Part shown: positions 28,648 to 45,354 of the stretch, in pieces
How positions within the stretch are numbered: the stretch's first letter is position 1
How the letters are laid out: every line of letters starts with the position of its first letter
NCBI GenBank assembly: GCA_963726255.1
Contig: CAVSBL010000002.1
Coordinates: forward strand, 2,048,001 to 2,112,000
DNA: 64,000 nt
From: Candidatus Bathyarchaeota archaeon
Lineage (GTDB): Archaea; Thermoproteota; Bathyarchaeia; 40CM-2-53-6
Reading direction: 5' to 3'
The notes under the pieces: model-generated
Told to the model about the DNA's origin: nothing
Database searches by the model: none
The model's input: only the letters and a program-made list of their open reading frames with translations
Position numbers and translations under genes: made by a program

Positions 28648-28680
28648 ATACTGACTACGCCCGCGACTCTGAGGCCGTAA
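28648..28680 (+). repeat. Orphan 3'-end fragment of the LRP-terminal domain (ILTTPATLRP*), left island border
   Basis: ATACTGACTACGCCCGCGACTCTGAGGCCGTAA matches the ends of genes at 32123, 37285, 40806. Confidence 0.7.
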
Positions 28681-28762
28681 CAGTTCAGAACACTGAAGCG
28701 GGCGTTTGCAGCTGCAGCAGATTCGACACTCTAACCAGGATTAGGCCAGCCGCAGTCGAAGG

Positions 28763-29254
28763 CTATTCGACGGTGAAGTAGCAGTATCCTCTGAGTGTGC
28801 GCGGTGCGCCCGGGTAGATGACTCGGCCCCATAGTTCTACGCGGTATAATCCGGTGGGGTCGGTTGTTTTGATTTGGTATGTGGCGCTCTCAGCTATGTC
28901 CCGGTTTAGATGTAGGCTTACGTTTGCCCCGTCCGGTTTGATTATGAACAGCCCATACGCAACGCCTACGCCTCCGACGGCTGGGTAAATGTGGATAGTT
29001 ACATTTTGCCCAACATTATACACGGTCTTGTCGGGCCAAATTCGGTATGAACACGTTGAGCATGCTAGTGAAGCTATTGACGTCGCAGTTACTGAACTAG
29101 GTACGGTAGGTGGCAACATGGTTGACTGGAAAGTAGCGGCGACAAATAGGACTAGACACGTCGCAGCAACTCCAACCAATACTGGAATCTGCTTCCGATT
29201 GATCGACAAAAGAGGTGCCCCACACTCTACAGGAATGGGTTTCTCTATGAACAT
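28763..29254 (-). CDS. Secreted/membrane-anchored Ig-like (MG2-like) protein
   Basis: N-terminal hydrophobic stretch; PDKTVYNVGQNVTI...KPDG...DPTGLYRVEL. Confidence 0.65.
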   Translation of the reverse strand: MFIEKPIPVECGAPLLSINRKQIPVLVGVAATCLVLFVAATFQSTMLPPTVPSSVTATSIASLACSTCSYRIWPDKTVYNVGQNVTIHIYPAVGGVGVAYGLFIIKPDGANVSLHLNRDIAESATYQIKTTDPTGLYRVELWGRVIYPGAPRTLRGYCYFTVE

Positions 29255-29369
29255 TAAGGCGCCAAAGAAAACCTATAGATAGTCCCCGGCTCGTTCGCGC
29301 TTGTAACTACATTAGGTATTGTTCTTACAAAGAAAGTAAGTGTATCCGCTGCCGATTACGCCCTGATGG

Positions 29370-32123
29370 TTGTTGAGTAGCGTAGCTTCTCGAGGAAAAC
29401 GCCCCGACATTTTCCCCATTCCTCACACCACAATCGTCGCCCTCCTCGTTGTCTATCTTTGCCTAACGTTGGTCCTAAGCAGCGCTGTCATCCCCGCATA
29501 TTCTCAAGTCAAGAAACACGGAATCATGACGCCCAGCGAGGAAATGCTTCACCAGTGGATTACGGATTACAATACTGGCGCGAGAGTTCCTAACGCGACC
29601 TCACTCCAAATGGCAACAGTTGCACCCCCGCACTTTGACCTACTCAGCCACCTCCAGTACACGCCGGCCCAACGTGACCAGGGATGGTGCGGCAACTGTT
29701 GGAACTGGGCCAGCACCGGAGTGCTTGAAGTTGCACTTGACGTTCAAGGCATTAGGAAGGATCGCCTATCAATCCAATATCTGAACTCGTACTACGATGT
29801 GGGAAGCGGACCGGGCTCGAGCGCCACTTGGGCTTGCTGCGGCGGAAACCTGAACAAGTACGCGAACTTCTACTCGGGTAGAGCACTTACGATCCCTTGG
29901 TCCAACACGAACGCAGGTTGGCCTATTGGCTCAGGCGACTACAACAATGATAACTGCCCTGGCCATTCGAATGTGGCGGCGTCAAGCATCGGGCTCATGC
30001 CAAGGATTGGCATCAAACAGATTCAGGCTCAATGGATTAACACGCAGGGAGTTGGGCAGTCAGCCGCAATCGCCAACATCAAAAATGTTCTGCTTCAAAA
30101 CAAGGCCATTTATTATGCGTTCGACTTGGCGAACGACGCGGACTGGACCGATTTCTACAGCTTCTGGAGTTCCCAGCCGGAGAGCGCCCTGTGGAACCCC
30201 AACTCATATTCTGGACATACGTGGGTCAACGGGCAAGGAGGCGGACATGCGGTTCTGTTGCTCGGCTACGATACTAGTGATGCCAACCCTGCTAATTGGT
30301 ATTGGATTGTATTGAACAGTTGGGGAACAACATCGCCCGGGCGTCCGAACGGCTTTTTCCATCTAAAAATGAACATTGACTACGACAACTACATCTACGA
30401 GATTGGATACGGCAACTGGTATTCCCTTGAATTCGGAACATTGGCCCTAAGCTTCAGCCCGTTAGTTGTTCCGCTTACGGTTTCAGTTAGTCCTCCGACC
30501 TCAGGTTCAGTCTCCCTAACCCCTGCTGCATCTTCATACACTTTCGGAGCAACTGTTAAGGCGACTGCGAAACCGTCAGCTGGGTACTATTTCGCCGCAT
30601 GGGGACTCGACGACAAGTACGCAGGTAACAGCAACCCAATTCCATTTGTGATGAACGACACTCACAGCCTGACCGCGTACTTCGAACCCCAGAACCAATG
30701 GGTTAGAGCGAACAACAATCCAATTCTAACGCCAGCCCTAATCTCATGGGACAACTGGTTAGTTTGGAACCCCCGACTATTCACATATCCCAATGGGACT
30801 TTCGGCATGGTGTACTTAGGAACAAATGTGAATGGGACGAATGGAATCGGACTGGCAACGAGTCCAGACGGGCTTCAATGGATCAAATACCCCAAGCCAA
30901 TACTCACTAGGTCTCCTGTAGTGGGACAATGGGACAACGGCTCAGTCATTCCTGGGAATATTTTCTGGGATGGATCAGAATACGTCCTCTACTATGAAGG
31001 AAGTAATCCGGGCTCAGGCCGGGCTTTCGGATATGCCACATCGCCTGATACAATTCATTGGACCAAGTACCCCGCGAACCCTGTCATGACTCGCTCAACC
31101 TCCGCCGATACTCAGTACTTCAATTACCCGTTCACGTTGAAGGTTGGGGGAACTTACAAGATGTGGTACACGTCCGGCAACAAGATCTCTTTGGCAACAT
31201 CACCGGACGGGATAAGTTGGACTAGAGTTAATGGTGGTTCCGCTGTACTGTCGCCTTCAGGTTCCTCCACATGGGATGGCGGATATGTGTACAGCGCTGC
31301 GGTCGTCTATGATTCGGAGGCTGGCACTTACCTGATGTCCTACTCCGGCATAGACCCGGATGGCGTAACCGCCAACACAGGATTGGCAACTTCAACCGAC
31401 GGGGTATTGTGGACCAAGTATTCAGGCAACCCAATCGTAGCACTCAGCCCAGCGGGCAGTTGGGATAGTGGAGATTCCGTTGACAACCAGGGCATGTTGC
31501 TGTGGAATGGGCAATTGACCGTGTATTATTCAGGTGACGCTGCATTTCCAGTCTATCACAATGCGGCTGACTTACGCAGTTACAGCATCGGTGCCGCCTC
31601 TGTTTCCAGAATCGCTCTACGCGCCGGGTGGAACCTGATCTCCATGCCCGTCGTTCCAAGGAATAGTGCTGTGGCATCGATATTGGCGCAGTTAATTGCA
31701 GCGAAGGAAGTTTCTATCGTTTGGAGTTACACTGGCACACCGAGGACATGGAAATTCTACAAACCCGGCGTTGCAAGCTCATTGACGATGATGAAAGACG
31801 GTGAAGGTTACTGGGTCATGATGACTCAGCCCGACACGCTCTACGTTGGAGGCGACGTGATTCCGGCAGCCACCACACCACCCACCTACCCGCTTCAGCT
31901 CGGCTGGAACCTCGTGGGCTTCAAGCCTCAACCAGCAATTCAAGACGCGACCGTTCACGACTACCTCCAAAGCATCATCGGCAGCTATGATTTCAACAAT
32001 GTTTGGATATACGACAACATGAACGGCAATTGGATACGTGCAAGTCCTGACGGCTCAACCCGGCTCAAGCCCGGACAAGCCATGTGGGTCCTCGTAACCG
32101 CGCCCGCAACCCTGAGGCCATAA
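29370..32123 (+). CDS. Secreted multidomain protein: papain-like C1 peptidase + beta-sandwich repeat + GH130/GH43-like beta-propeller + LRP-terminal domain
   Basis: Signal/TM; QGWCGNCW, GGHAV, NSWG; repeated GLATSPDGxxW/NP(I/V); two GWNL repeats; ends TAPATLRP*. Confidence 0.85.
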   Translation: MLSSVASRGKRPDIFPIPHTTIVALLVVYLCLTLVLSSAVIPAYSQVKKHGIMTPSEEMLHQWITDYNTGARVPNATSLQMATVAPPHFDLLSHLQYTPAQRDQGWCGNCWNWASTGVLEVALDVQGIRKDRLSIQYLNSYYDVGSGPGSSATWACCGGNLNKYANFYSGRALTIPWSNTNAGWPIGSGDYNNDNCPGHSNVAASSIGLMPRIGIKQIQAQWINTQGVGQSAAIANIKNVLLQNKAIYYAFDLANDADWTDFYSFWSSQPESALWNPNSYSGHTWVNGQGGGHAVLLLGYDTSDANPANWYWIVLNSWGTTSPGRPNGFFHLKMNIDYDNYIYEIGYGNWYSLEFGTLALSFSPLVVPLTVSVSPPTSGSVSLTPAASSYTFGATVKATAKPSAGYYFAAWGLDDKYAGNSNPIPFVMNDTHSLTAYFEPQNQWVRANNNPILTPALISWDNWLVWNPRLFTYPNGTFGMVYLGTNVNGTNGIGLATSPDGLQWIKYPKPILTRSPVVGQWDNGSVIPGNIFWDGSEYVLYYEGSNPGSGRAFGYATSPDTIHWTKYPANPVMTRSTSADTQYFNYPFTLKVGGTYKMWYTSGNKISLATSPDGISWTRVNGGSAVLSPSGSSTWDGGYVYSAAVVYDSEAGTYLMSYSGIDPDGVTANTGLATSTDGVLWTKYSGNPIVALSPAGSWDSGDSVDNQGMLLWNGQLTVYYSGDAAFPVYHNAADLRSYSIGAASVSRIALRAGWNLISMPVVPRNSAVASILAQLIAAKEVSIVWSYTGTPRTWKFYKPGVASSLTMMKDGEGYWVMMTQPDTLYVGGDVIPAATTPPTYPLQLGWNLVGFKPQPAIQDATVHDYLQSIIGSYDFNNVWIYDNMNGNWIRASPDGSTRLKPGQAMWVLVTAPATLRP

Positions 32124-32171
32124 TTCTTGAATTCTACTCGTCGAAAAAATCGATGAATTAAGAAGTCTTCA

Positions 32172-33071
32172 TCAGAGTCTCATTGCTGCTGAGATAACGT
32201 AGCCCATGGCCAAGAGGGCGATTGTGAGATAGGCGGTTGCAATGTTTGCTGCGAGCGCTGGAACTAGCTTTCGAGTGTTTGAAAACTCACGTAATGTTAC
32301 CCTGATGGCTTTTGCGGCGAAGGGGAGCGCGGTCAGAGCGATCAGAGTGGGCGGAGGGGTAAGGCCGAAGATTACCGATACGGGGATGCAAGCAACAGCC
32401 AACGCCTCGAGGAGGGCGTAGAGTTTCGCAGAACGCCCCCTGCCCAGCAATATTGGAATGTTCTTTCGTCCGCCTGCGGCGTCAGCTTCGAGGTCAGGCA
32501 TCTCATTCAGGAAGAGCACGTTAGCAATCATTATGCCTGGCGCGAGACCCACGGCCACGGCGCCCGCACTTATGTTACCGGTTTGGACGAAGTAAGCCCC
32601 GATTATTGCTAGTGGCCCAAGGTTTAGGCCTGCCAGGAACTCTCCCAAGTAGATTCTGGCGAATGTGTTTGAGTAGAAGTAGACCGAGATGGCCGCGATC
32701 GCCACCAGACCCAGGAGCGCTATTCCCCGCGTCAATACAAAGTAGGCACCGATTGGAATCGCAAGAAGGAGCGAACCCAAGCCGAACGATAAGGCGCTCT
32801 TCGGTTTGATTAAGCCCGCGACTAGGAATCTGCTTCCGCCACTGAAGGGCGTTTTCAAAGTGGCCGCATCCACCCCGGTCTTATAGTCGTAGTAATCGTT
32901 GAGCACGTTCACTGCGTTCTGCGCTAATGTCACACCAATTATTGCGAGAACGTAGTAGGCTAGGTTGAAGAGACCCTCCCGTGCTGCAACGGCCGTGCCC
33001 AAGCTGACGAGTAGAAAACTCATCAACAAGGACGGTTCCACAGCTTCGCGGAACCAAACCTTAAGCCCCAA
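32172..33071 (-). CDS. menA: UbiA-family prenyltransferase, MenA-like
   Basis: NVLNDYYDYKTGVD, NEMPDLEADAAGGRKN; multi-TM. Confidence 0.82.
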   Translation of the reverse strand: MGLKVWFREAVEPSLLMSFLLVSLGTAVAAREGLFNLAYYVLAIIGVTLAQNAVNVLNDYYDYKTGVDAATLKTPFSGGSRFLVAGLIKPKSALSFGLGSLLLAIPIGAYFVLTRGIALLGLVAIAAISVYFYSNTFARIYLGEFLAGLNLGPLAIIGAYFVQTGNISAGAVAVGLAPGIMIANVLFLNEMPDLEADAAGGRKNIPILLGRGRSAKLYALLEALAVACIPVSVIFGLTPPPTLIALTALPFAAKAIRVTLREFSNTRKLVPALAANIATAYLTIALLAMGYVISAAMRL

Positions 33072-33197
33072 AGCAACTTTGCGCCGAGCTTACCGTTTCA
33101 GTGATTATAATGGTGACGCTTGAACCCAGAGGTTACGGCTTTGAACCTAATGTATTCTGAAGAATCTTCGATTGATTGCTTGTGACAATGGCTGCGG

Positions 33198-33791
33198 TCA
33201 AGACATGGTCATGGTTACGGTTGAGTTTGAAGGTGCCAGAACAGTAGCTATGGCGGAGACCGTCGTTCCAACGTTGTACGCGCCCGACATGAACCTGACG
33301 CCGATCGTTACGCCGTTGGAACCGCCGTTGGCAATGAGCGCGTCATTACCCATGGGGTCCTTGACTAGGAGGAAGTTCAGGTATGGTGGAATTGCGGATA
33401 TGACATCACCCACCATCAACCCGGCTGGAACCACTACAACCTTCGATGAGGTTGAGAAACCTGTGATTTGCATTACCCCCGTTCCATCGATGTTTATCGT
33501 GTCGAGGAGTATGTCGAAGTCAGCGGCCCGGTTCAGGACCAGGACAATTCTCGTAATGAAGAATGGGCCGGTTCCTTGACTTGTGATCGTAATCTTGGAG
33601 TTTCCTAGGAATTGTGTGCTAGCGTAGACTCGAACAATGCCATATTGGGATAGGGGCATTGGGACGTCTGTGGAAGGAGGAGGAGCGAGCACGTAGCTGA
33701 GGCTAATTGAGGTTAAGCCAATCAGTATGATGGCCGCTGCTAGGATTGCAATCCTAGTCCTCCGCGCTAGGATCTTCCGCATAACACTCAC
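33198..33791 (-). CDS. Membrane-anchored extracellular beta-rich protein
   Basis: Basic N-terminus, TM, Pro linker, beta-rich body. Confidence 0.65.
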   Translation of the reverse strand: MSVMRKILARRTRIAILAAAIILIGLTSISLSYVLAPPPSTDVPMPLSQYGIVRVYASTQFLGNSKITITSQGTGPFFITRIVLVLNRAADFDILLDTINIDGTGVMQITGFSTSSKVVVVPAGLMVGDVISAIPPYLNFLLVKDPMGNDALIANGGSNGVTIGVRFMSGAYNVGTTVSAIATVLAPSNSTVTMTMS

Positions 33792-33998
33792 TAAGGTGGG
33801 GAACCCGCCGACCGCACAAAATTGCGCTCTAAGGATACTTAATGCTTTGCCATCACACCGCTCCTAGGCTAACGTGTAGACAACATCAAACAAAGGGCTA
33901 ATCCAGCCGAACAATCTTTCCAGGCTTCAAAGCGTCGAACGATCCCTACTTCACGAAAGCTTTAGTAATATCCGCTTAAGTATCGCGATTTGATTTTC

Positions 33999-35132
33999 AT
34001 GAGAGCCCAAAATGCCAGTCTTCTGTTCACGGGCCTCATCTTGGCGCTTCTGGTGGCGAATTTCCCGATTCTGGTGCAGGCTCAGAGCCCTCCGCCGTTA
34101 CCTATGCTGTACACCGGGAACGTAACCCTCAACGGTTCCCCGGCGCCGGACGGCCTGAATGTCACAGCGCTAGATAACGGCGTGGTCGTGGGTTCAGCAT
34201 TAACGAGTGGCGGCACATATTCACTCTTAGCCTGTTCGCCCGAGAATTGCAATCAGGGCGATACGTTGAGTTTCAAGCTGAACGGCCAATTGACCGCGGC
34301 CCAAACCGTTGCAGTAGACACTAGCCAACGCGGAATCCCGCAAAACCAAGACCTATCCTTCACGGGAACATTATCGTCAGTCACAACAACCACGCCTCCA
34401 CCCACATCAACGACGACCGCCACGCAACAAACCACTTCAACGAGTTCGGCTGTGAGTAGCACTAGTTCAACCGAAAGTAGCGCTAGCATGACTGAGAGTA
34501 GTTCGGCTACGGTTCCAGCTACGACGAGCAATTCTAGCGCTCTTCCCACTGGCCCGAAATGCCTCATAGCCACCGCTACTTATGGGTCTGAGCTTGCACC
34601 GGAAGTTCAACTGCTCCGCAACTTCCGTGATTATTCAATCATGAAAACTCAGGCTGGGTCAAACTTCATGGTTGCCTTCAATGCCTGGTACTACTCCTTC
34701 AGCCCCTACGTTGCGAACTATATCGCTAGCCATTGGGTTGAACGAACCGTCATGAAGGGCGTCCTCTACCCGCTGATCGGAATGCTCTTCCTGACGCATG
34801 TCGTCTTCTCGGCTGCTGCCACCTCCCCCGAATTCGCAGCTCTCCTTTCTGGGTTGCTTGCGAGTTCACTAATTGGCGCATTCTACTTGGGCTTGCCAAT
34901 CGGCTTCCTCAGGGCAAAGCTCCGCCGGCTGCGCAACTGGAAAGGAGAGAGGCTATTCGAGCAATCGCTTGGGTTGATACTCCTCAGCGGAATGATTCTA
35001 CTAATCGCCGGAGAAGCCACAGCCCTTCCGGCATTGCTCATGATCTCATCGGCCGCAATCGTATTGTCAACCCTCTTCCTCTCTGCATTACTCACATCAG
35101 CGATGATTGGCAAGAAACTCCAAGCCGACTGA
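33999..35132 (+). CDS. Surface protein with Ser/Thr linker and CFI-box-CTERM domain
   Basis: Signal peptide, ST-rich linker, KCLIATATYGSELAPEVQLLRNFRD...WYYSFSP, C-terminal TMs. Confidence 0.85.
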   Translation: MRAQNASLLFTGLILALLVANFPILVQAQSPPPLPMLYTGNVTLNGSPAPDGLNVTALDNGVVVGSALTSGGTYSLLACSPENCNQGDTLSFKLNGQLTAAQTVAVDTSQRGIPQNQDLSFTGTLSSVTTTTPPPTSTTTATQQTTSTSSAVSSTSSTESSASMTESSSATVPATTSNSSALPTGPKCLIATATYGSELAPEVQLLRNFRDYSIMKTQAGSNFMVAFNAWYYSFSPYVANYIASHWVERTVMKGVLYPLIGMLFLTHVVFSAAATSPEFAALLSGLLASSLIGAFYLGLPIGFLRAKLRRLRNWKGERLFEQSLGLILLSGMILLIAGEATALPALLMISSAAIVLSTLFLSALLTSAMIGKKLQAD

Positions 35133-35278
35133 ATCTTTAGAGACCGCAATTGGCGCCGATTCCTGCGTTTGGTCATGCCTTATGGCATAATTATTCGAAC
35201 GAGTTGAATCTACGTACCTCGTGGCTCCTAGGGCAATATTCTTGTCGTTATGAAAGGCGTTAAATAACGATTCATATT

Positions 35279-37285
35279 ATGTACTGTTGGTCGATTTTGC
35301 GTTATCATGTTCGCTCAACGATTGCGGGTTTGTTATCTTTCCTATTGATAGTTAGTTTCGCAGCGTTCATACCTCCATCCGTCTTCGCTGTGAATAACAC
35401 GATTACCGTCAAGGTGCTTCCTACTGGCGCCGGCACCGCCAAAGCTCTCCCTGCTCTCTCTGTTCTCCCGGGAACGACCGTGACCTTAACTGCGGTCCCT
35501 GCAGCAGGCTACTACTTCCAAGCATGGGTCTTAGAAAATATGAACAATGGAACGTACGGGTACTATTCGAACGTCAATCCTACGATGCTCAAGACAGATT
35601 CAGCGGGAGGAGTAGCCTATGCTGTGATTGCGTATTTCCAGCAGGTGAATCAATGGGTCAGATACCAAGGCAACCCGATTCTAACACGAGCAGCTGACCC
35701 AACCTCTTGGTTTAGTGACTATGTCTATGAGCCGAAGGTCTTCGCTCGGCCCGATGGAAGTTTTGGAATGGCTTTCAGGGGATGTGGCCCACTCACATTG
35801 ACGGCTTCATTTCCTGTGTACAACTGCAGGATCGGACTAGCAACGAGCGCTAATGCATTTACCTGGACGCCGAACCTCGCCCCAATCCTCTCCCCAGGCG
35901 GAGGAAGCTCAGTCAATTCTATCATAGGTAGCTCGAACAGCCCCTACCCATGGGATAATTACAGCATGAATCTGGGCAGCGTATTCTGGGATCCTTCGTT
36001 CTCGGGAGGAAAGTTTCTGCTATACTACAGCGCCCAGAATGTTTCATCATCGAGTACTCGTCCCTTTCTCCTGTTTAGGGGAATTGGGCTGGCATCGTCA
36101 TCTGACGGAGTAACCTTCGCCCGTGAGAATGGTGGGAAACCGCTTTTGTACACACAATTCACGTGCACAAGCGGATCCTGCCCGAGTTTTGCATACCCGT
36201 CCGTGCTCAAGCACGGCTCCACGTATATGATGTGGCAAAACGGCAAGCCAACCGGCGGACAAGGAGGAGCCATATTCCTCGAAACATCAACAGACGCTAT
36301 CCATTGGAGCCTGCAAAACGGAGGAGACCCCGTGTTAACCCAAGAAGACTGGAACGATTACGACAACTATGGTCATCTGATCATCAATCCACAATCCCTG
36401 ATTGACGCCTACAAATGGGACGGCGATTTCGTATATGCTCCAAGCGTGCTCTACGACGCCCTCGCGAACAATTTCAAAATGTTCTACTCTGGAACTGATT
36501 ACAACGGGACTTCATGTTGCAGGACGGGCTTCGCAACTTCACCCGAAGGAATAAACTGGAATCCATACCCCGGCAATCCGATCATCGCACCTAATGCTGC
36601 CCCTGCATGGGATGATGGTGACAGCACAGACCTTGTCGGAGCGTTCTACCTCAACAGTACGCTCATGGTCTACTATTCAGGGGACACGTTCAACTCTATC
36701 AGTTGCATTGAAAACGGGGATACCTGCAGTCACTTCCAAGCGTACAGCATAGGTTTGCTTTACGCTTCCGAGATTCCGGTAGTTGCCGGATGGAACCTTA
36801 TCTCGTTACCCGTAGTTCCCAACAATAACAACCTGAAAACGATCCTTGCCCCACAAATCGCCACGGGTCACCTCACAATAGTCTGGAGCTATTTGACGGC
36901 TACGAAGAGCTGGATATCCTTCACGCCTCCCTCCACGGGCACGTTGACTACTCTGGTGGACGGCAAGGCATATTGGGTGAGGATGACGACCGCAGACACC
37001 ATCATCGTGGGTGGAACAGTGATACCCCCAGCCGTGGGGCCTCCAAGCTATGTGCTTCCTCAAGGCTGGAACCTGTTAGGCTTCAAACCACAACCCAACA
37101 TCGAGAACGAAACCGTATCCTTCTACCTATCCAGCATTTCATCCGGCTATGACCCCAACAGCGTCTACATCTACAACAACCTTTCCGGAGCATGGACAAA
37201 GGCGAATGGTAACACGTTGCTTCTGCCAGGCCAAGGATTGTGGATTTACGTAACCTCCGCTACACCTGTCACCTTGAGACCGTAA
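35279..37285 (+). CDS. Secreted GH130/GH43-like beta-propeller protein with LRP-terminal domain
   Basis: Same module order as the 3' two-thirds of the 29370 ORF (NQWVR..NPIL, GLATS, GWNLISLP, GWNLLGFKPQP); ends VTLRP*. Confidence 0.85.
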   Translation: MYCWSILRYHVRSTIAGLLSFLLIVSFAAFIPPSVFAVNNTITVKVLPTGAGTAKALPALSVLPGTTVTLTAVPAAGYYFQAWVLENMNNGTYGYYSNVNPTMLKTDSAGGVAYAVIAYFQQVNQWVRYQGNPILTRAADPTSWFSDYVYEPKVFARPDGSFGMAFRGCGPLTLTASFPVYNCRIGLATSANAFTWTPNLAPILSPGGGSSVNSIIGSSNSPYPWDNYSMNLGSVFWDPSFSGGKFLLYYSAQNVSSSSTRPFLLFRGIGLASSSDGVTFARENGGKPLLYTQFTCTSGSCPSFAYPSVLKHGSTYMMWQNGKPTGGQGGAIFLETSTDAIHWSLQNGGDPVLTQEDWNDYDNYGHLIINPQSLIDAYKWDGDFVYAPSVLYDALANNFKMFYSGTDYNGTSCCRTGFATSPEGINWNPYPGNPIIAPNAAPAWDDGDSTDLVGAFYLNSTLMVYYSGDTFNSISCIENGDTCSHFQAYSIGLLYASEIPVVAGWNLISLPVVPNNNNLKTILAPQIATGHLTIVWSYLTATKSWISFTPPSTGTLTTLVDGKAYWVRMTTADTIIVGGTVIPPAVGPPSYVLPQGWNLLGFKPQPNIENETVSFYLSSISSGYDPNSVYIYNNLSGAWTKANGNTLLLPGQGLWIYVTSATPVTLRP

Positions 37286-37373
37286 ACTTGGAACACGGAA
37301 ACCCGTGTTCCACTTAATTTCCACTCAAGGCATTTCTGTCATGCTCCATCCAAGCGCGTAACGCCGGGTAGTG

Positions 37374-37460
37374 TCGTCGGCCGCAATCGTATTGTCCACT
37401 CTCTTCCTATCCGCATTGCTGACGTCAGCGAAGATTGGCAAGAGACTTCACCCAGCCTAA
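37374..37460 (+). repeat. Orphan copy of the last 29 codons of the CFI-box-CTERM gene (35046-35132)
   Basis: SSAAIVLSTLFLSALLTSAKIGKRLHPA* vs SSAAIVLSTLFLSALLTSAMIGKKLQAD*; mostly third-position changes. Confidence 0.85.
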
Positions 37461-37531
37461 CTGCACGGAAAGACCGAAACAGCAGCCACGACAAACCCAC
37501 TCCGCAATTTCACGATCACACTTTCCGTGCT

Positions 37532-37729
37532 CAACGTGGAATCCCTCAAAACCAGGACCTAGCCTTCACGGGAACATTATCATCAGTCACAACAACCACG
37601 CCACTGACCACAACTAGCGAAATGGTAACGACAACTACACCCATACCTGAATTCCCGGCGTTGGCATTGGCGCTGCTTGCCGCGTTGGGCGTGGCGTTCG
37701 CAACATTCTACAAGAAGACTCGGCGTTAA
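37532..37729 (+). pseudogene. Startless cassette: 72-bp homology to 34326-34397 fused to a PEF-CTERM anchor
   Basis: QRGIPQNQDLAFTGTLSSVTTTTP then LTTTSEMVTTTTPIPEFPALALALLAALGVAFATFYKKTRR*. Confidence 0.85.
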
Positions 37730-37776
37730 CCCTTCAGGTTCTCCATTTCTTACAGGTCCTACATTTTGTCTGACAA

Positions 37777-38367: not shown

Positions 38368-38587
38368 GCCCCCTAACTCGTATACGACTCGGGCCTGGAA
38401 TTTGAACCCACTTCGACCCCCTTCGACAATTGTCGTATGAAAAATCTGATTATCTGCTAATCGACGCGTTTCAATACTTAGGCTCCCATTATGCGCACTT
38501 AATGGCATCTTCGTGTAAGACGACTTCGCCAAGTAAATGAAAATATGGTTTAAGTATGCAATTGGTATCATTTGTAAACGATACGCA

Positions 38588-38908
38588 ATGACGTTGCGGC
38601 CGCTGGCGACAAGGGTGCCCAAGGAAGTCGAGCATGAGATACAAGACGTTATGGATTTCCTCAAAATCGAGAAGGCCCAGGCTGTCAGGATGATTCTGGA
38701 GATTGGAATTTCAGAGTGGAAGAAGAGAACGGCGATTGAGCTTCTAAGGGATGGAAGAGTAACCTTCGCAAAAGCCGCGAAACTAGCCAACCTGGACCTA
38801 TGGGACTTTGCGGATGTGGTAAGGGATAGGAAGGTAGAGTGGGTTAGCACCCCTGCTAGTGAGCTGGAAGTTGAGGCCAGCAAGGCCTCAAGGGCCGCAA
38901 ACGAATGA
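38588..38908 (+). CDS. UPF0175-family antitoxin-like protein
   Basis: AIELLRDGRVTFAKAAKLANLDLWDF; ATGA overlap with PIN gene. Confidence 0.85.
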   Translation: MTLRPLATRVPKEVEHEIQDVMDFLKIEKAQAVRMILEIGISEWKKRTAIELLRDGRVTFAKAAKLANLDLWDFADVVRDRKVEWVSTPASELEVEASKASRAANE

Positions 38909-39417
38909 AATCCCTCATATTCGATTCTACGCCTCTAATCTACCTGACAAGAGTTGGACTCGTCAGACTGTTCGAACTTATTCCAGCCCAGAAGTTCGTT
39001 GCCCGTTCGGTTTTCAGGGAAGTGGTCGAGCGCGGGAAAGTGAAAGGATTAGCAGATGCATTAGCGCTGGAGGCTCTTTTCGACGCGAAAACCATAACGA
39101 TCAGTGAGCCATCGAAGAAAGCAGTTTTGCGCATGTTTACCAGCATAAGCGGCTTGGAGGAAGCCGATGCTGAAACCCTGGCCATCGCGAAGGAACAGGG
39201 TTATCGTGCCGTTCTAGACGACCTTCTAGCGAGAAAGGTAGCGAGAACCTACGGGATTGATTTCGTGGGAACCCCCTACTTGCTAATGATTGCAACCAAT
39301 ACTCGGATACTCACGAAAAAAGAGGCAACGAAGGCAGTCGACGAGATGATTGAAGCCGGCTGGAGATGCGGCCCCGAGCTATACCGCGAGATCCTGCGAT
39401 TGATCGAGCATAGCTGA
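38905..39417 (+). CDS. PIN-domain toxin (DUF3368-like)
   Basis: IFDSTPLI, EADAETLAIA, LDDLLARK. Confidence 0.88.
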   Translation: MKSLIFDSTPLIYLTRVGLVRLFELIPAQKFVARSVFREVVERGKVKGLADALALEALFDAKTITISEPSKKAVLRMFTSISGLEEADAETLAIAKEQGYRAVLDDLLARKVARTYGIDFVGTPYLLMIATNTRILTKKEATKAVDEMIEAGWRCGPELYREILRLIEHS

Positions 39418-39444
39418 ATCCCGGCAAAAGAGAAAGTGACTTGC

Positions 39445-39960
39445 CTAGGCTTTGCGGCTTGACGTTCTTCTGCGCTTGAGGAAGAATAGGCTGAGCGCAA
39501 CGGCGGCGATTCCTACTACGCCAATTACAATGAGTTCGAACCCTGGGGTTGGCTGCGCTGGGTCGTGGACGTGGATTGTTGTTGAAGCCCCCAGCGTTTT
39601 CGTCATGGCATCGTTTCCCAGCAATCTCATGAAAGCAGAGGCTATGATTGTGTAGCCACCTGCAGTCGTTGGTGTCCATTTTTCGCTAACTATCAAAGCG
39701 TCGGCCGTGACGTGTGTGGATGAGTAGGTTGTTTGGTTTGAAGCGTTCAGTACTTGGATTTGGATTACGTAATTGTGGGCGATCATGGGTTGCATGCAGC
39801 CCGGAAGCAGGGGGAGAAAGGTTACGGTGATGTTCACACGCTCGCCGACAGCGTAATCGTCCCGATCGGTTTGGACGATTAGGGAACTGCACGCCCGGAC
39901 ATTAATTGAAGCAGCGCCGGCAAGGACTGGAAAAACCGACGCTAGGACTAAAGCCATCAT
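39445..39960 (-). CDS. Secreted Ig-like protein with PGF-CTERM-like anchor
   Basis: TDRDDYAVGERVNITV; PTPGF + TM + KRRR. Confidence 0.75.
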   Translation of the reverse strand: MMALVLASVFPVLAGAASINVRACSSLIVQTDRDDYAVGERVNITVTFLPLLPGCMQPMIAHNYVIQIQVLNASNQTTYSSTHVTADALIVSEKWTPTTAGGYTIIASAFMRLLGNDAMTKTLGASTTIHVHDPAQPTPGFELIVIGVVGIAAVALSLFFLKRRRTSSRKA

Positions 39961-39987
39961 TAGGCTAAGGAATACGGAACGGGCGAT

Positions 39988-40806
39988 TTGCCTTTGCGAT
40001 CATCTTGCTCCTTCAGTCCGTCACCTGCTGTTCCAGACTATATTAGCACACTCACGATAAGCACGGAGCCTTCGACGCCAGCAGGGTCTTACGACGTTAT
40101 TGTGAACGGCACAGTCGGGATCGTGACTAACTCGACTAGCTTCAACCTGGTTGTGAATCAGCATCAACAATCCTGCACGTTGACCTCTCTCCCCTCAATG
40201 TACAATTGCCCGTTACCGTTCGTGCAGGGTTGGAACCTGTTTTCACTGCCAGTCACGCCTGTGGCTAACAGCACATTCCCGAACACTGTCGACGGCATCT
40301 TCGGTTCTAACCCTCAGTTTGGTTTCATGAGCAATGTGAGCAGCATCTTCGCGTACACTTCGGGAACATGGCAAACCTGTATGGTGACTAAACAAGGTTC
40401 AGAGGCGAATGCGAAGTACACCTGCACAGGGGCTTTGAAGAACTTGGTTGACGGCAGGGGGTACTGGGTTTACGCTAAGGTAGCGTTCACTTTGAACAAT
40501 CCAAACAACCTCGCTCCGACTTGGGGTGGGCTGGTCGGTTCGGTCATTCCCTCAACCTCTACACCACCAACATACTCGCTGACTGCGGGCTGGAATCTTG
40601 TAGGGTACAAGCCGCAACCTGACCCAGCTGTGTCGGAAACGGTTTCCACATACTTGACCAGCCTGCTCGGCAGCAGCTACGACCCTAACAATGTCTGGGT
40701 CTACGATAGTGCAACAGCGCGGTGGGCTCGTGGCACGGAGACGACGCTGGAGCCCGGCCAAGCGTTCTGGGTCTTCATGCTAACCCCGGCCCAGCTCCGC
40801 CCATAA
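39988..40806 (+). pseudogene. 5'-truncated secreted protein retaining the LRP-terminal domain
   Basis: Begins mid-domain (SCSFSPS...STLTIST...PAGSY), no signal peptide, only 27 nt from the divergent ORF; two GWNL repeats, ends AQLRP*. Confidence 0.75.
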
Positions 40807-40830
40807 CCCGTCCCAATCAGTTGCCAGATA

Positions 40831-41061
40831 TACTCGCTGACTGCAGGATGGAACCTGATCGGCTACAAACCCCAACCCCGCGTTCAAAATGAAACTGTAA
40901 GTCAATACCTCATCAGCATCAGCGGAAGCTACGACCCGAACAACGTTTTCGTTTACAACAACCTAACCGGTTCATGGACTCGCGGCGGACCCTCAACTCA
41001 ACTTGTCTCTGGAGAAGTCATGTGGATTCTAATGGCCTCATCCGCTACGCTGAGGCCGTAA
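40831..41061 (+). repeat. Orphan second half of the LRP-terminal domain (76 codons + stop, no start)
   Basis: YSLTAGWNLIGYKPQP...GEVMWILMASSATLRP*, in frame after the 40806 stop; not in ORF track. Confidence 0.9.
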
Positions 41062-41171
41062 CACCCAGCCACAATGACCGGAGGGCATTCCCTCGTCAGC
41101 TTGGCAACGCCCTCAAGGTGGATGTAATCAACTGATGATTAGTGCTGTGAGCTGTCCATTCGTGAGGGCGT

Positions 41172-41597
41172 CTAATTGCGTGTCTTCTTGATTAGGTGGG
41201 AGGGTTCGGTTCTTGGAACGTCGAGTTTGTCGAAATGCTTGTCGTAGCTTACAATGGCCTCTACTCCTAATCTCTTTGCAACGTAATATTGCAGCGCGTC
41301 GTCAAAATCCAGAGATTCTCTCTCAGTTAGCATCGCTGCAGACATCTCATCCGCTACGCCGGTCTCAAAGACGGTGAGCCCAAGCGAATTATCTAGATTC
41401 CTGAGGAAGGTGAGGATTGGTTCTCCTGAGCCAAGCACAGCTTCCACTGCGTGTACGGTGAAATGGGTGATAACCGCTTCAATCCTGCCCTTTGAGACAG
41501 CACTAAGTAAAGCTTCACAATCATCAGCCCTACTTTGCCCCAGCAATAATTCAAGGAAGACGTTCGTATCCAGTAGAATCAATCTTGGTTCGACCAA
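41172..41597 (-). CDS. vapC: VapC PIN-domain toxin
   Basis: LLDTNVFLE, LDFDDALQY, SYDKHFD. Confidence 0.92.
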   Translation of the reverse strand: MVEPRLILLDTNVFLELLLGQSRADDCEALLSAVSKGRIEAVITHFTVHAVEAVLGSGEPILTFLRNLDNSLGLTVFETGVADEMSAAMLTERESLDFDDALQYYVAKRLGVEAIVSYDKHFDKLDVPRTEPSHLIKKTRN

Positions 41598-41815
41598 AGC
41601 CTATGCTGCAATTGAACAGAGGAACCCTTCTTCCCCGTCCTCAAAGTGCCCTTCAAAGAAGCCCAATCCACTGACCCTGACATGGAGAATTTCGTGATCA
41701 CATCCTCCACGGCTTTCTTGATCGTCCCCTTCTTGTACCCGTACTTTTCCATGGCCTTCTTCCTGAACTTCCTAGCAAGAGCATCATCAACCTCGACTTT
41801 TATTGTTTCGGTCAT
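41579..41815 (-). CDS. RHH-type antitoxin
   Basis: TIKVEVDDALARKFR; overlaps the vapC start. Confidence 0.8.
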   Translation of the reverse strand: MTETIKVEVDDALARKFRKKAMEKYGYKKGTIKKAVEDVITKFSMSGSVDWASLKGTLRTGKKGSSVQLQHRLWSNQD

Positions 41816-42064
41816 ATGTCCATATCCCCCAAATGTCCATTACTCGCCCAACCTAAAAGAGTTAAGGTATCTACGCGTGCAGTCACGTGTAAATCGAGGG
41901 AAATTACGCCGCCACCCTCGTTACAATAGCTGCGCCTGAGGCCGCGGCGATCTGCCGCCAACGCTTCTACGTAGAAAGTTGCGCGTCCACGAATCCCACC
42001 GGTCCGAGAATACCGACTGAGAAACCAGGAATTAATCCGTTTAAAGAACGAAATATTGCTGGCA

Positions 42065-42454
42065 CTAAAACCATGTTGTCTTCACGTTAGCTATTGATTT
42101 GATGTGGTCGTCGTCCGTGAAGCAAACCAGCTTCTTGATCTTCGCAGTTGCGGCAATTATTGCGTCTGCGATTGGAAAATCTCTGCCTTGGGAAACTTTA
42201 ACCTCAGCAGACTCGGCGGCTATGTCAGAATTAATGTCTATGACTTCAAAGTCTCTCTCAATAGCAGATTTTCTTATCTTTGCCACATCACGGCCTTCAA
42301 CTTCGAGGCTTATTCTGTATACTTCGTGAATGGTAATGGCTGATACGTATCTACGTTTTCGAGCCTGTAGTTCCGACTTGACCTTCAGTCGCAGACCACG
42401 TTCTGCAGTGTAGGTTGCGATGAAGAATCTTGTGTCATAAAGTGTGTCAGGCAT
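42065..42454 (-). CDS. vapC: VapC PIN-domain toxin
   Basis: YDTRFF, TIHEV, IADAIIAATA, TDDDH. Confidence 0.9.
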   Translation of the reverse strand: MPDTLYDTRFFIATYTAERGLRLKVKSELQARKRRYVSAITIHEVYRISLEVEGRDVAKIRKSAIERDFEVIDINSDIAAESAEVKVSQGRDFPIADAIIAATAKIKKLVCFTDDDHIKSIANVKTTWF

Positions 42455-42668
42455 CTTCTCGCCTGATCTGGTCTAGTCTTCGCTTCATTTCGTCGAAGCC
42501 TTTTTTGCTGCTTCCAATGAGGTCGATCGTCGACCGAGCTTTTCTGAACATTACTCCCTCACCGGTGTCAATTACTTGGAGCTTCGCTCCTTGGGACATG
42601 GCATACTTCTCCCGCAACTCTTTGGGGATAGTTGTCTGGCCCTTCCGGGTTACAGTGACGGTAGTCAA
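42447..42668 (-). CDS. AbrB/MazE-type antitoxin
   Basis: VTVTRKGQTTIPKELR. Confidence 0.9.
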   Translation of the reverse strand: MTTVTVTRKGQTTIPKELREKYAMSQGAKLQVIDTGEGVMFRKARSTIDLIGSSKKGFDEMKRRLDQIRREDA

Positions 42669-42714
42669 TCCTGATTCAGATCAAGTGTGGTTTGGGTAGT
42701 ATTTATCAGTGACG

Positions 42715-42739
42715 GTAGTACTGTTAACTTCGGTACTAC
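42715..42739. promoter_or_regulatory. Putative TA operator GTAGTAC-N11-GTACTAC
   Basis: Perfect inverted repeat upstream of the AbrB gene. Confidence 0.6.
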
Positions 42740-42937
42740 TTCATGCTCCTGAAGCAGGTCCGTTTCAAACCTGGGCGTTAACATGCAGTCAATGGTGCTT
42801 GATGTGTGGACAGCCGTACGGGACTCATTTAACCCAATAGATCTTGGGCTCAGACCCCATTGATCCCAAGATTGTCTGGGAATGCTGCCGGAAAATGCAC
42901 CCAGGACGAGACGATATGTGACCGGCCCCGCCCCACA

Positions 42938-43006
42938 TCAACTCAACTAGTCCATGGAGAAGTCGTGTGGATCCTAAGGGCCTCATCCGCTGCACTGAGG
43001 CCGTGA
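42938..43006 (+). repeat. Orphan 3' fragment of the LRP-terminal domain (STQLVHGEVVWILRASSAALRP*)
   Basis: 60/69 nt identical to 40993-41061 by manual alignment. Confidence 0.9.
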
Positions 43007-43165
43007 GAATTCAGTCACAAGAACCGCGCCTGAGGCCTAAACCAGCTTAGGGTTGCCTTCGCTTGGCACCGTTTGGCACCACCCCAAGATGGGTGGATCA
43101 ACCGTCCCCGCTGCGAATGGTTGCAGCATTATTTGGCCGTGAGTTCCTTCGGTCCGAACGTTTGA

Positions 43166-43555
43166 TTAGATCATGTAAACTTCTGGTAATCCTCGAAAAT
43201 GCTGGTCCCCGGTAACAACCTTCCCGCCTCTATCACGTGCAGTTGAAAGTACAATTGAATCAGCCAACCCCCAACCCGGAACACGTTTCTTCATCACCAC
43301 ATCCAGCTTAGCGGCTTCGACAGCCAATTCCTCACCGAGAACCACAAGCGCACTTCTCGATTTGATGAAAGCCCTTCGGAGCTCCGCCTTCTCGGCGGCC
43401 TCGCTTCTCAGAATCTTAGCGTATATCTCTGCCAAGCATATTGATGGTGTGAGCTTCTCATTGACTTCAGAGTCAACAATTGCTTTGACTTTCCTTCCGC
43501 CGTCGGTTCCCATGAAGTATTCTAGCCAGGCGTGGGAATCTATAATGTACTTCAA
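43166..43555 (-). CDS. vapC: VapC PIN-domain toxin
   Basis: IIDSHAWLEY, LADSIVL, VTGDQHF. Confidence 0.92.
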   Translation of the reverse strand: MKYIIDSHAWLEYFMGTDGGRKVKAIVDSEVNEKLTPSICLAEIYAKILRSEAAEKAELRRAFIKSRSALVVLGEELAVEAAKLDVVMKKRVPGWGLADSIVLSTARDRGGKVVTGDQHFRGLPEVYMI

Positions 43556-43737
43556 GTTCGGTCCCTATGGTCGCGGAGGTCCCTCAAGGACGTCTTGTCC
43601 ATTGTGCCGAACATGCTCTCTCCCTTCAGCAAGGCTTCGGCTAGGATTGCGTTAATGGCGTCTGAGATTCCTCTCGGGCCGTACTTCTTTTTGAGAATCT
43701 CATACAGGTCTTCTCTAAGCAACACTGTCGTCTTCAT
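43552..43737 (-). CDS. VapB-like antitoxin
   Basis: KTTVLLREDLYE...SMFG; 4-nt overlap with vapC; CCGTAAA/TTTACGG inverted repeat upstream. Confidence 0.82.
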   Translation of the reverse strand: MKTTVLLREDLYEILKKKYGPRGISDAINAILAEALLKGESMFGTMDKTSLRDLRDHRDRT

Positions 43738-43809
43738 GGCAAATACGTAACCGTAAACATAAACATAAACCTTTACGGCTTCGCATCTACCATGAGAGGT
43801 AACCGCGAA

Positions 43810-43968
43810 ACCTACCTAATGAGCACCACAGGAAGTTATGAAACAAACAGCATTTGGGTTTACGATAGTTTAACCTCGGTTTGCGTTTGGGCTGACTCGA
43901 GCTACATGCTTCAGCCTGGTGTGGGAATGTGGATCCTTATGACCGCGCCCGCGACGCTCAGACCGTAA
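43810..43968 (+). repeat. Orphan 3' fragment of the LRP-terminal domain (52 codons + stop)
   Basis: TYLMSTTGSYETNSIWVYDSLTSVCVWADSSYMLQPGVGMWILMTAPATLRP*. Confidence 0.9.
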
Positions 43969-43984
43969 CCCATGCTGAACTTAA

Positions 43985-44338
43985 TCAAATGTCCCGGATG
44001 ATGTTGGGAATATCGCCGAGAATTATTTGGGTGATTTCGACGAAGCCACGGAACTTCCCCGCCTTAAACCAAGGCGTTTGGCACACCAACTTTCGCACTC
44101 CCCCCTTCTGCGTAGTGTAAACGTTTGCCTGCTTTTTCTCTATAAGCTCCTTGAGTTTCGCCCGTGCCGATTCCGGGTGGCAATCAAACACATTAGTGCC
44201 AATCAGCTGCTGACCCCCATCGTCCTTGAAGTCTTCGGCCGCCTTCGCGTTCATCTCCAGAATCATTCCCGCGGAATCGCACACAGTAATTGCAGCAGGA
44301 AATTCTTCCACCCACGAATGATTAGTGACTTTCGCCAA
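43985..44338 (-). CDS. Stand-alone PAS-domain protein
   Basis: AITVCDSAGMILEMN, LIGTNVFDCHP, FRGFVEI. Confidence 0.85.
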   Translation of the reverse strand: MAKVTNHSWVEEFPAAITVCDSAGMILEMNAKAAEDFKDDGGQQLIGTNVFDCHPESARAKLKELIEKKQANVYTTQKGGVRKLVCQTPWFKAGKFRGFVEITQIILGDIPNIIRDI

Positions 44339-44501
44339 ATTCGCCTCACAACTTCCTAGTTGAATTAAAACCGAGCCCTCCTTTAGAATGCTTTACTCCT
44401 TATCCTTAGAGGAAATCACTCAAGATTAGCGGCCAAGTCTTGCAGACTTCACCGGTGGCCTCTGTAACACTGAAATCGTATGACTGACGGGCACGTTACA
44501 G

Positions 44502-44545
44502 GTTGTACGTCAGTCTTAAGTACAACACTTTAGCTAAGGTTGTAC
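44502..44545. promoter_or_regulatory. Putative TA operator GTTGTAC-N11-GTACAAC-N12-GTTGTAC
   Basis: Three alternating 7-bp half-sites around a CTTAAG box upstream of the AbrB ATG. Confidence 0.62.
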
Positions 44546-44554
44546 TGGCAACCT

Positions 44555-44791
44555 ATGTCAGACGATGTCGTTCTGGTTACAAGGAAGGGTCAGATTACGA
44601 TCCCAGTCTCAAAGAGAAACAAGTACAGAATAAAGGAAGGCATGAAGGTTCTTGTAAAGGACAGTTCTGAGGGCATTCTCATTAAGCCAATTACACCGAT
44701 AGAAAGTTTAGCGGGAGTGGATGCAGGTAAAGTAAGCATTGCGCGGATGAAGCGTAAACTGGACGACATGAGGCGACAAGATAGGTACTGA
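44555..44791 (+). CDS. AbrB/MazE-type antitoxin
   Basis: VLVTRKGQITIP; ATG at 44555. Confidence 0.9.
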   Translation: MSDDVVLVTRKGQITIPVSKRNKYRIKEGMKVLVKDSSEGILIKPITPIESLAGVDAGKVSIARMKRKLDDMRRQDRY

Positions 44792-44793
44792 AC

Positions 44794-45192
44794 ATGCCCG
44801 TCACGGTCGACACACGTTTCTTTTTGACTCATTACCTCGCGGACACTGATGAGCTTAAGTCGAGAACATCAGGAAAAATGATTGAACTTCAAAGAGAAGG
44901 CGCCGTGGTTCCTACGATCGTTCTCCATGAAGTGTATAAGTTCACTTACGAAAATGTCGGAAAGGAAGTCGCCTATCTTCGCGTCAACTCGATTATGAGC
45001 TCGGATATGAGGGTGGTTGATTTGACACCACAAATTGCTGTAGCATCAGCTAACCTGAGGTGTCGGCACAGGGGATTGCCGACAGCCGATTCGATTATTG
45101 CAGCAACGTGCATAGATACGAAATCGAAGCGCGTTCTCTCCGATGACCCACGCTTCAAGATGATCAAAGAAATCGAGGCCGAATGGCTCTAA
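44794..45192 (+). CDS. vapC: VapC PIN-domain toxin
   Basis: VDTRFF, VLHEV, TADSIIAAT, SDDPRF; related to the 42065 VapC. Confidence 0.9.
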   Translation: MPVTVDTRFFLTHYLADTDELKSRTSGKMIELQREGAVVPTIVLHEVYKFTYENVGKEVAYLRVNSIMSSDMRVVDLTPQIAVASANLRCRHRGLPTADSIIAATCIDTKSKRVLSDDPRFKMIKEIEAEWL

Positions 45193-45201
45193 CGCTCTCC
45201 A

Positions 45202-45288
45202 CGTGCCCGTACTAATGAGTACACATCGCTTCGGCCTGGGCAGGCAATGTGGATTCTTATGACCGCGCCTGCCACACTCCGACCTTAA
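45202..45288 (+). repeat. Orphan 3' fragment of the LRP-terminal domain, right island border
   Basis: RARTNEYTSLRPGQAMWILMTAPATLRP* vs RASPDGSTRLKPGQAMWVLVTAPATLRP* of the 29370 ORF. Confidence 0.9.
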
Positions 45289-45354
45289 CGCAGTCCCGTT
45301 CTCTTCGCAGTCACGGCGCCACATTGTGTATGCGCGCACGAATTAATCTGAATG

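Follow-up and report, generated by a model that had tools for sequence, protein, structure and literature searches.

Orphan gene ends and toxin-antitoxin pairs in a variable island of a Bathyarchaeia genome: a possible accretion array of recombination scars

Introduction

Why should one stretch of an archaeal chromosome carry the end of the same protein-coding domain eight times over, mostly cut off from any gene and set among toxin-antitoxin (TA) modules? The question is raised by an island reaching from the first of these gene ends, with its stop at position 28680, to the last, with its stop at 45288, within a window of 64,000 nt (64 kb; C2:2048001-2112000) of assembly GCA_963726255.1, a metagenome-assembled genome (MAG) of the Bathyarchaeia referred to here as G000. 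Bathyarchaeia are abundant, uncultured archaea of sediment and peat, and to our knowledge the routes by which they gain and lose genes are almost unknown.

The comparisons reported below lead us to regard the island, with moderate confidence, as an array of recombination scars accreted at gene ends through host recombination, without a dedicated integrase. The best fit is a history of accretion and decay, in which remnants also arise independently by plain deletion and TA pairs persist as cargo. There is about an even chance that secreted surface enzymes sharing a C-terminal double beta-sandwich domain, together with VapBC modules, have been added, swapped, permuted and lost in this island.

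Genomes and sequence data

G000 is a 2.42-Mb assembly of five contigs, rated 98.5% complete with a 'contamination' figure of 9.3%; coordinates given without a contig name are positions in the window. The relatives of G000 found in the searches carry the title Bathyarchaeia MAGs. The closest relative in the comparison, G021, shares about 92% DNA identity with G000; its flank proteins are 93-98% identical and the aligned DNA blocks 89-95% identical. Contigs, and no reads, from the public metagenome runs X1, X2, X3 and X5 were aligned to the island. X1 is the likely source population of G000, and X5 represents a third strain from a different study.

Gene tails and their parent domain

An earlier interpretation of the window made without database searches (the sequence-only reading) had noted eight same-strand copies of a tail ending in ATLRP and a stop. 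All eight are present on the + strand, with stops at 28680, 32123, 37285, 40806, 41061, 43006, 43968 and 45288. Three close long open frames (917, 668 and 272 aa) and five are orphans of about 26-231 nt, whose homology extends over 28652-28680, 40831-41061, 42936-43006, 43768-43968 and 45202-45288, close to the lengths of about 33, 231, 69, 159 and 87 nt originally assigned to them. The 272-aa gene had not been listed among the fragments; its stop is correct, but the gene is a 5'-truncated remnant whose G021 orthologue has 934 aa. Across all six frames of the 2.42-Mb genome there are seven instances of ATLRP followed by a stop, six of them from the family and the seventh unrelated, so that even the 26-nt copy at 28680 is not a chance match. 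By tblastn against the whole of G000, the domain is confined to the island and one 586-aa open frame at C2:143575-144060, and no fragments lie elsewhere in the genome. Two tiny additional remnants, at 41920-41943 and 43014-43042, were rejected as candidates (12-nt common core, 20/24 match; chance not excluded). At the 5' edge of the orphan ending at 43968, contigs of X1 and X2 hold a variant with a 26-nt deletion (43782-43809).

The part shared by the paralogues spans about 170 residues and consists of two similar sub-domains, each with a GWNL motif at its start and a hydrophobic strand at its end; the consensus protein end is MW(I/V)L(M/V)T.PATLRP. The AlphaFold model of this C-terminal domain shows two beta-sandwich units (pLDDT 89) and has no fold match in the PDB at E<0.01. 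No Pfam or NCBIfam model covers the double domain, and the ESM Atlas yields unnamed clusters only. A profile search with it (31554-32120) retrieved 12,556 cluster representatives at E<=1e-3, in nearly all of which the domain occupies the extreme C-terminus, behind heads as varied as proteases, BNR/sialidase-like domains and DUF11. This placement behind varied heads makes it an apparently common but undescribed C-terminal module of secreted proteins, which may anchor them to the surface.

The domain occurs in seven of 41 genomes from the order, all seven belonging to one genus, with 58 matches listed. Tail-keeping orphans number 22, in six genomes, and are 8-77 residues long. This list was pre-filtered for pieces reaching the tail and leaves out two copies cut by contig ends, so the asymmetry between tails and other fragments rests on the 58 matches: none of them, in the seven genomes, is a stand-alone piece of the domain lacking the tail. 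The few that stop early are parts of frameshifted copies with the tail piece directly after. Within G000, no fragments of paralogue heads or middle parts occur outside full genes. A larger version of the same type of region occupies 36 kb at a contig end of G011 (C1:860001-896222; L027, L028) and combines seven long paralogues, in both orientations, with two orphan tails and two PIN genes.

The asymmetry bears on a passive account, which we consider rather unlikely, in which tandem paralogues and independent TA islets are born and then decay by random deletion, the tails being inert remains that happen to be recognisable. N-terminal heads are not conserved, so head remnants would escape notice, as this account needs; tail-less fragments of the conserved domain would be detectable, yet there are none among the 58 matches.

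Gains, losses and permutation of blocks

G000 and G021 differ by nine block indels. The sequence-only reading predicted breakpoints at the repeats, and this applies on both sides to three of the nine; two others have a tail at the block end only, and four lack a repeat. In the repeat-bounded indels, one copy is kept in the shorter genome. One of these is a block with two TA pairs (41059-43004), lying between the tails that stop at 41061 and 43006 and missing from G021. The left partner of this repeat (D4) is the 231-nt + strand orphan 40831-41061, which comprises the entire second sub-domain; the right partner is the + strand orphan of about 70 nt at 42936-43006, 88% identical to 40993-41059. 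The single tail of G021 is a hybrid, resembling the 41061 copy in its 5' part and the 43006 copy in its last 15 nt and downstream flank. The block contains VapBC pair 1 (41172-41815, - strand; PIN gene 41172-41597, small partner 41579-41815) and VapBC pair 2 (42065-42668, - strand; PIN gene 42065-42454, AbrB/MazE gene 42447-42668), both absent from G021. Searches for it in G021, G015, G004 and G003 found nothing, and G011 gave a partial match of 67% only. G021 also lacks 34397-37531, with the junction within the 81-nt repeat D6, and it carries a 1.48-kb TA insert, which starts exactly at the stop, between two 62-nt copies of the tatA 3' end.

Block order is not shared among the relatives, and several gains and losses break exactly in the repeats, as had been anticipated. 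The idea that orphans mark both borders of the island holds approximately: in G004 the flanks 27929-28273 and 46848-47648 are only 2.5 kb apart. At the same locus, G015 carries other genes over 6.3 kb and a lone orphan tail between tatA and a hydrolase gene. On these comparisons the region is a hot spot.

The strain in X5 adds two joints, its arrangement being taken from joint tables and not from the letters of the contigs. In one, X5 skips 35073-37400, which equals the 2328-nt spacing of the repeat D7, with 8 letters fitting both sides; the 668-aa gene (35279-37285) is therefore absent there, and its arrival left the orphan at 37374-37460 as a scar. At the other locus, 42427-42965 is joined to 41021-42050, and 40787 to 42047. 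The joint from 42965 to 41021 falls within the tail repeat, with 12 letters fitting both sides. The resulting order of 272-aa gene, pair 2, tail and pair 1 is a circular permutation of the 1945-nt G000 unit 41021-42965. The permuted unit is 96-98% identical to that of G000, and the X5 backbone pieces are 89-94% identical; permutation together with the higher identity of the unit points to its recent transfer via a circular or tandem form. Run X2 contains the G021-like form with identical joints.

Could the repeats be an artefact of paralogous gene ends joined wrongly in assembly? Short-read contigs do break near the 43006 repeat. X1, X2 and X3 contigs with 0-1 mismatches nevertheless span the tails at 28680, 32123, 37285, 41061 and 43968 with their flanks, and the same orphans stand at orthologous places in G021, which leaves mis-assembly barely conceivable.

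For passive decay, the indels provide evidence in both directions. In its favour, four of the nine have no repeat at their ends, and a plain deletion, with a joint of about 14 nt of microhomology, shortened the 272-aa gene. Against it stand three G021 indels, two X5 joints and the locus C2:639266, all bounded exactly by repeats, and a circularly permuted block.

Resident and newcomer copies of gene ends

Within the island, the same pattern was found in a gene outside the family, where a nested DISPLACEMENT occurs. The gene at 33990-35132 (+ strand; 380-aa surface protein) has a CFI-box-CTERM end (NF041770, E 4.5e-21), while its G021 orthologue ends in a PEF motif, a transmembrane helix and a basic tail, which is exactly what the orphan 3' end at 37532-37729 (D6'; + strand) of G000 encodes. 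We take this tail to be PEF-CTERM-like; no model matched it. The gene contains both repeats mentioned above, D6 internally at 34326-34406 (81 nt) and D7 as its own 3' end at 35046-35132 (last 87 nt). The orphan D7' at 37374-37460 (+ strand) is the 3' end of a 33990-like gene, in frame and with the stop at its end, and the cargo of the D7-flanked block is the 668-aa secreted paralogue (+ strand), which ends in VTLRP. The states may form a series: one gene, as in G021; then a new CFI-box tail inserted and the old tail displaced downstream, as in X5; then the 668-aa gene also inserted and a second tail displaced downstream, as in G000.

Comparison of copies indicates which of them came from outside. 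For the tatA tail of G021, the orphan matches G000 at 59/62 positions and the in-gene copy at 54/62, with 201/229 for the rest of tatA. The D6 orphan has about 3/81 differences from the G021 copy, and the in-gene copy about 10/81. In both cases the in-gene copy is the newcomer and the orphan the former resident. The third case is the repeat pair C2:639266/641144, at which G021 has an empty site with one 42-nt copy, about 2 differences from one G000 copy and about 6-7 from the other; here the distal copy is the foreign-like one, which fits a single crossover and not a newcomer displacing a resident tail. One resident-like and one foreign-like copy per pair in all three cases argue for crossover with homeologous DNA and against target-site duplication; the presence of both in each repeat pair also goes against passive decay. 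An argument that the repeats are too diverged for a duplication after the strains split was dropped, as neutral sites diverge faster than the 92% average.

Conservation of the tails as protein

The sequence-only reading proposed the DNA of the conserved C-terminal domain as a dedicated landing pad, an integron-like platform for serial recombination. In 56 copies compared, codon choice over the last 13 residues is free to vary, and there is no conservation beyond the stop. Most pairs of island tails are near synonymous saturation (pS 0.5-0.96, pN/pS 0.1-0.6). The copies at 43968 and 45288 differ by 6.0 synonymous and 0 non-synonymous changes over the last 13 codons; these six differences had been noticed, and rightly read as marking ends of different once-functional genes. 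The sole close pair is 41061/43006 (pS about 0.2, pN 0.12, ratio about 0.6), the 43006 copy being under relaxed constraint relative to the 41061 copy. Since synonymous differences are near saturation, the orphans are ends of different, once-functional and deeply diverged genes; and since synonymous sites are free and the DNA past the stop is unconserved, the tail is not a conserved recombinase site or DNA landing pad. That proposal is largely refuted on these grounds. Cassettes separated by one sequence family, with TA pairs as cargo, speak for it, but other gene ends behave alike, there is no integrase and cargo lies on both strands, so that it is now very improbable.

The same data bear on a role of the fragments as silent partial cassettes, donating sequence to expressed genes by gene conversion and so varying the surface. 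Promoterless 3' fragments downstream of expressed paralogues would suit such a role. The idea is hardly credible in view of their content, which is the conserved and not the variable part, their length of only 26-231 nt and the relaxed constraint on the 43006 copy.

Recombination enzymes

The absence of a local integrase, already remarked on from the sequence, extends to the entire genome: PF00589 (tyrosine recombinase) has 0 matches at E<=0.01 in G000, and the same search matches 14/14 control genomes. No reverse transcriptase (RVT_1) was matched in G000, and its two TnpB-type genes are both far from the island. On these grounds site-specific and retro mechanisms were rejected for the island. 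A search for archaeal AmoA also found no match in G000, but it was equally silent in 14/14 controls, so absence is not shown.

This result weighs on the possibility that the island grew by site-specific accretion similar to that of integrative and conjugative elements and cis-mobilisable elements (ICE/CIME), as integrase-less remnants with attL and attR derived from the target gene end and integrases acting in trans. Several features would suit it. Repeats of 42-87 nt lie at gene 3' ends, and empty sites in relatives hold one copy; a direct repeat with such an empty site was found for D4, the G021 TatA tail, D6, D7 and C2:639266/641144. Five relatives (G003, G004, G011, G015 and G021) have 2-7 PF00589 matches each, and the accretion model is established in bacteria (PMC5704250). 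No relative's integrase, however, lies beside a tail array, the only nearby match being below the cut-off and interrupted by 2 stops. Each of at least five unrelated targets would call for a specificity of its own, no common core is apparent, and the repeats are 77-93% identical. With G000 itself devoid of PF00589, we hold this route to be quite unlikely.

The pattern beyond the island

On contig C2 of G000, six of nine small PIN genes lie inside pairs of direct repeats no more than 2.5 kb apart, intervals that make up 1.2% of the contig; outside the island the count is three of five, and the genes of the island are not mutually independent. One example is C2:639266-641185 (L066), a 1.9-kb TA block whose flanking 42-nt direct repeat includes the 3' end and hairpin of the gene 641152-641922. 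Its AbrB-PIN unit (C2:639541-640426) has a 95% identical counterpart at a different locus of G015 and a 92% identical one in G011. In G015, a VapBC pair with an orphan tail before it and an inverted one after it forms a 1.45-kb insert at C1:648979-650431 (L039 6979-8431), set between two convergent genes; the G000 site is empty, without any tail. The same repeat-flanked pattern at the ends of TatA, the CFI-box-CTERM gene and the C2:641152 gene indicates a general process, not one tied to the domain. Among the 22 orphans, ten lie within 850 nt of a Pfam PIN gene, and the rest stand beside other genes or alone. The notion that tails travel generally with the family of the pair-1 PIN protein was rejected on 80 metagenome loci, none of which has the domain; for this family the pattern did not extend beyond the genus.

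Other features of the island and window

At the left end of the island, the orphan tail R1 (TTPATLRP and stop; 28652-28680, + strand; about 26-29 nt) is absent from G021, which joins 28654 to 32138; in X5, a 55-nt piece made of the R1 tail and the next 26 nt adjoins 32168, after about 3.5 kb unaligned. The G000-specific block that follows (28655-32137) is likewise absent from G021 and holds a hypothetical 163-aa membrane or surface protein (28763-29254, - strand; no Pfam or NCBIfam match) and the 917-aa secreted paralogue (29370-32123, + strand), which combines a papain-type protease, an InlB B-repeat, a propeller region and the C-terminal double domain and ends in ATLRP.

TA cargo between the orphans had been proposed, and Pfam confirms four VapBC pairs and a PAS gene: four PIN toxins (E about 1e-13), two AbrB/MazE antitoxins and the PAS protein. 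The small upstream partner genes of pairs 1 and 3 match no Pfam or NCBIfam family. A PIN toxin with a small overlapping upstream partner identifies these as predicted type II VapBC systems. To be added to the earlier account are a fifth, TA-like pair of UPF0175 and DUF3368 (PIN-like) genes (38537-39417, + strand; 93-98% protein identity in G021) and the other gene's orphan tails at 37374-37460 and 37532-37729. The 272-aa paralogue remnant (39988-40806, + strand) lost its 5' part in a deletion with a joint of about 14 nt of microhomology at 39979-39992. To the right of the two-TA block lie pair 3 (43166-43737, - strand; PIN gene 43166-43555, partner 43552-43737), present in G021; the orphan tail of about 160-200 nt at 43768-43968 (+ strand), with an orthologous orphan in G021; the 117-aa PAS-domain protein (43985-44338, - strand); pair 4 (44540-45192, + strand; AbrB/MazE gene 44540-44791, PIN gene 44794-45192), with 98% protein identity in G021; and the orphan tail of about 87 nt at 45202-45288 (+ strand), G021 having 233 unrelated nt in place of 45210-45339. 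Three VapBC pairs and the PAS gene are encoded on the - strand, pair 4 on the + strand, so the single orientation of integron cassettes is not seen.

Position 43049-43103 holds a partial copy of a non-coding interspersed repeat of about 125 nt that starts with a 14-nt palindrome. G000 has 10 copies at 90-97% identity, 6 full-length and 4 partial (the others on C2 at 408569, 640925, 671083, 885720, 1061742, 1170262, 1209395, 1338255 and 2247536), and many more occur in G015, G021 and G004; the window copy has no Rfam match. At the two-TA junction of G021, the tail directly adjoins a full-length copy. As a cassette junction the repeat was rejected: besides the known G000 copy, only three stretches from relatives among 430 kb contain it, and it is therefore not tied to the tails.

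The 64-kb window contains no tRNA gene, the stretch 26000-48000 has no Rfam match at E<=1, and there is no clear step in GC content (0.47-0.55 throughout) at the island borders. Upstream, 27125-27907 encodes a 260-aa protein with no Pfam match, whose family has members at 14 sites in G000 and, in 22 genomes of the genus, at 3-18 sites each. Downstream, 49400-54100 is a second variable stretch: the G004 homologues of 49114-49425 and 54116-54439 are adjacent, and G015 retains 49528-52986. Outside the window, contigs C1 and C5 have match scores equal to C2:2131251-2131979 and may be near-duplicate strain variants of that segment of C2, a possible cause of the 9.3% contamination figure.

Discussion

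How, then, could the island have been assembled? Incoming DNA would bring a slightly divergent version of a resident gene's last 30-230 nt, and either a single Campbell-type crossover with a circle or an event anchored by homology on one side would rebuild an intact gene and leave the other tail copy beyond the cargo. Later recombination between two similar tails may delete or circularise the intervening block, and plain deletions would erode the remainder. A circular intermediate is suggested by the permuted block. The enzymes would be those of host homologous or homeologous recombination, with no dedicated recombinase, so any gene end could serve; a paralogue family would offer many similar ends in one place, and TA pairs would accumulate because they resist loss, stabilising what they accompany.

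Several observations weigh against this reading. The G000-specific block 28655-32137 starts with a 26-nt tail and ends 13 nt past the stop of the 917-aa gene, and a 2.8-kb G021 insert at 46820/46835 ends at the stop of a paralogue; the empty sites of both hold no tail, and a simple reciprocal crossover does not explain them. Four indels have no repeat at their ends, namely two G021 inserts (33120/33190 and 33855/33926), the replacement of 45210-45339 (45209/45340) and one G000 deletion (39979/39992). The last, of at least 4.5 kb, has a joint of about 14 nt of microhomology, carries no cargo and turned the 934-aa gene seen in G021 into the 272-aa remnant. Most tails of the array are 63-83% identical in DNA, with pS of 0.5-0.96, a divergence at which most would be unable to recombine with each other now. 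Several orphans in relatives stand alone between housekeeping genes. Around relatives of the pair-1 PIN gene in 80 metagenome loci (457 kb), no such tail was found nearby, and direct-repeat bracketing in 4 of 32 usable loci equals the background (9.8% of DNA). The X5 permutation is drawn from joint tables, and X1 contigs, which drop rare variants, show neither a circle nor a deletion joint. The weak points are thus few events, contig-level data, low similarity of tails and indels without repeats.

Among known systems, the closest likeness is to polymorphic toxin loci. In the portions of PMC5361080 that treat Rhs, CdiA and Vibrio T6SS effector-immunity loci, incoming DNA recombines via the conserved part of a gene, a new 3' portion and downstream genes are installed, and the old 3' end is shifted downstream as an orphan; serial events give arrays without a dedicated recombinase, for which homology-facilitated illegitimate recombination is proposed. 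As in such C-terminal displacement arrays, the island has a full gene followed by same-strand orphan 3' pieces starting within the conserved region. Unlike them, it conserves the extreme C-terminus while heads vary, its orphans have no variable toxin tips, its cargo is cytoplasmic VapBC and not immunity genes, the host is archaeal, and unrelated genes (TatA, the CFI-box-CTERM protein) follow the same pattern.

In adding new elements beside old ones, the island also resembles the way in which integrative elements and CIMEs accrete in tandem at a target gene's 3' end (PMC5704250). The island differs in the lack of an integrase in its genome, in its many targets, in imperfect repeats with no apparent common core and in blocks of only 1.3-3.5 kb. 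Chromosomal integron arrays are known to be stabilised by TA cassettes (see also bioRxiv 10.1101/2022.08.03.502626); small cassettes between repeat copies, with TA pairs among them, are common to both, but the island has no IntI, attI or attC-type structured site and its cargo has both orientations. 'Integron-like', the term of the sequence-only reading, survives as an analogy only, and the island belongs neither to integrons nor to integrase-driven elements. Compact TA-only islets, without mobile-element genes and patchy among close relatives, are described in bacteria in sections of PMC13617665, with spread by recombination at flanking core genes proposed. The TA loci of the island share these traits, which lend passive decay some support; they differ in being bracketed by duplicated gene ends, with one block circularly permuted. 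A non-exhaustive literature search, without supplements, found no account of this arrangement in archaea.

A bolder form of accretion by host recombination, unlikely as it stands and put forward tentatively, is an integrase-free cassette system in Bathyarchaeia, in which circles of cargo plus a 40-230-nt gene tail excise tail-to-tail and pass between strains. Their re-insertion would take one homeologous crossover with the corresponding 3' end in a resident gene, which would never be broken, and the old tail would stay as a scar. The surface-gene family, through its one conserved tail, would provide a docking array with many sites, and VapBC pairs would be the most persistent passengers, amounting to integron function without the integrase.

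The locus offers a concrete, testable picture of how surface enzymes, anchoring tails and TA modules may be exchanged at gene ends in these archaea, including the swap of a CFI-box-CTERM tail for a PEF-type tail with no recognisable mobile-element machinery. If insertion by a circle and a single crossover is true, C-terminal displacement would extend to archaeal surface proteins and to housekeeping genes such as tatA, the presence of TA pairs inside short direct repeats in G000 would be explained, and orphan gene tails could be used as markers of past cassette traffic in MAGs.

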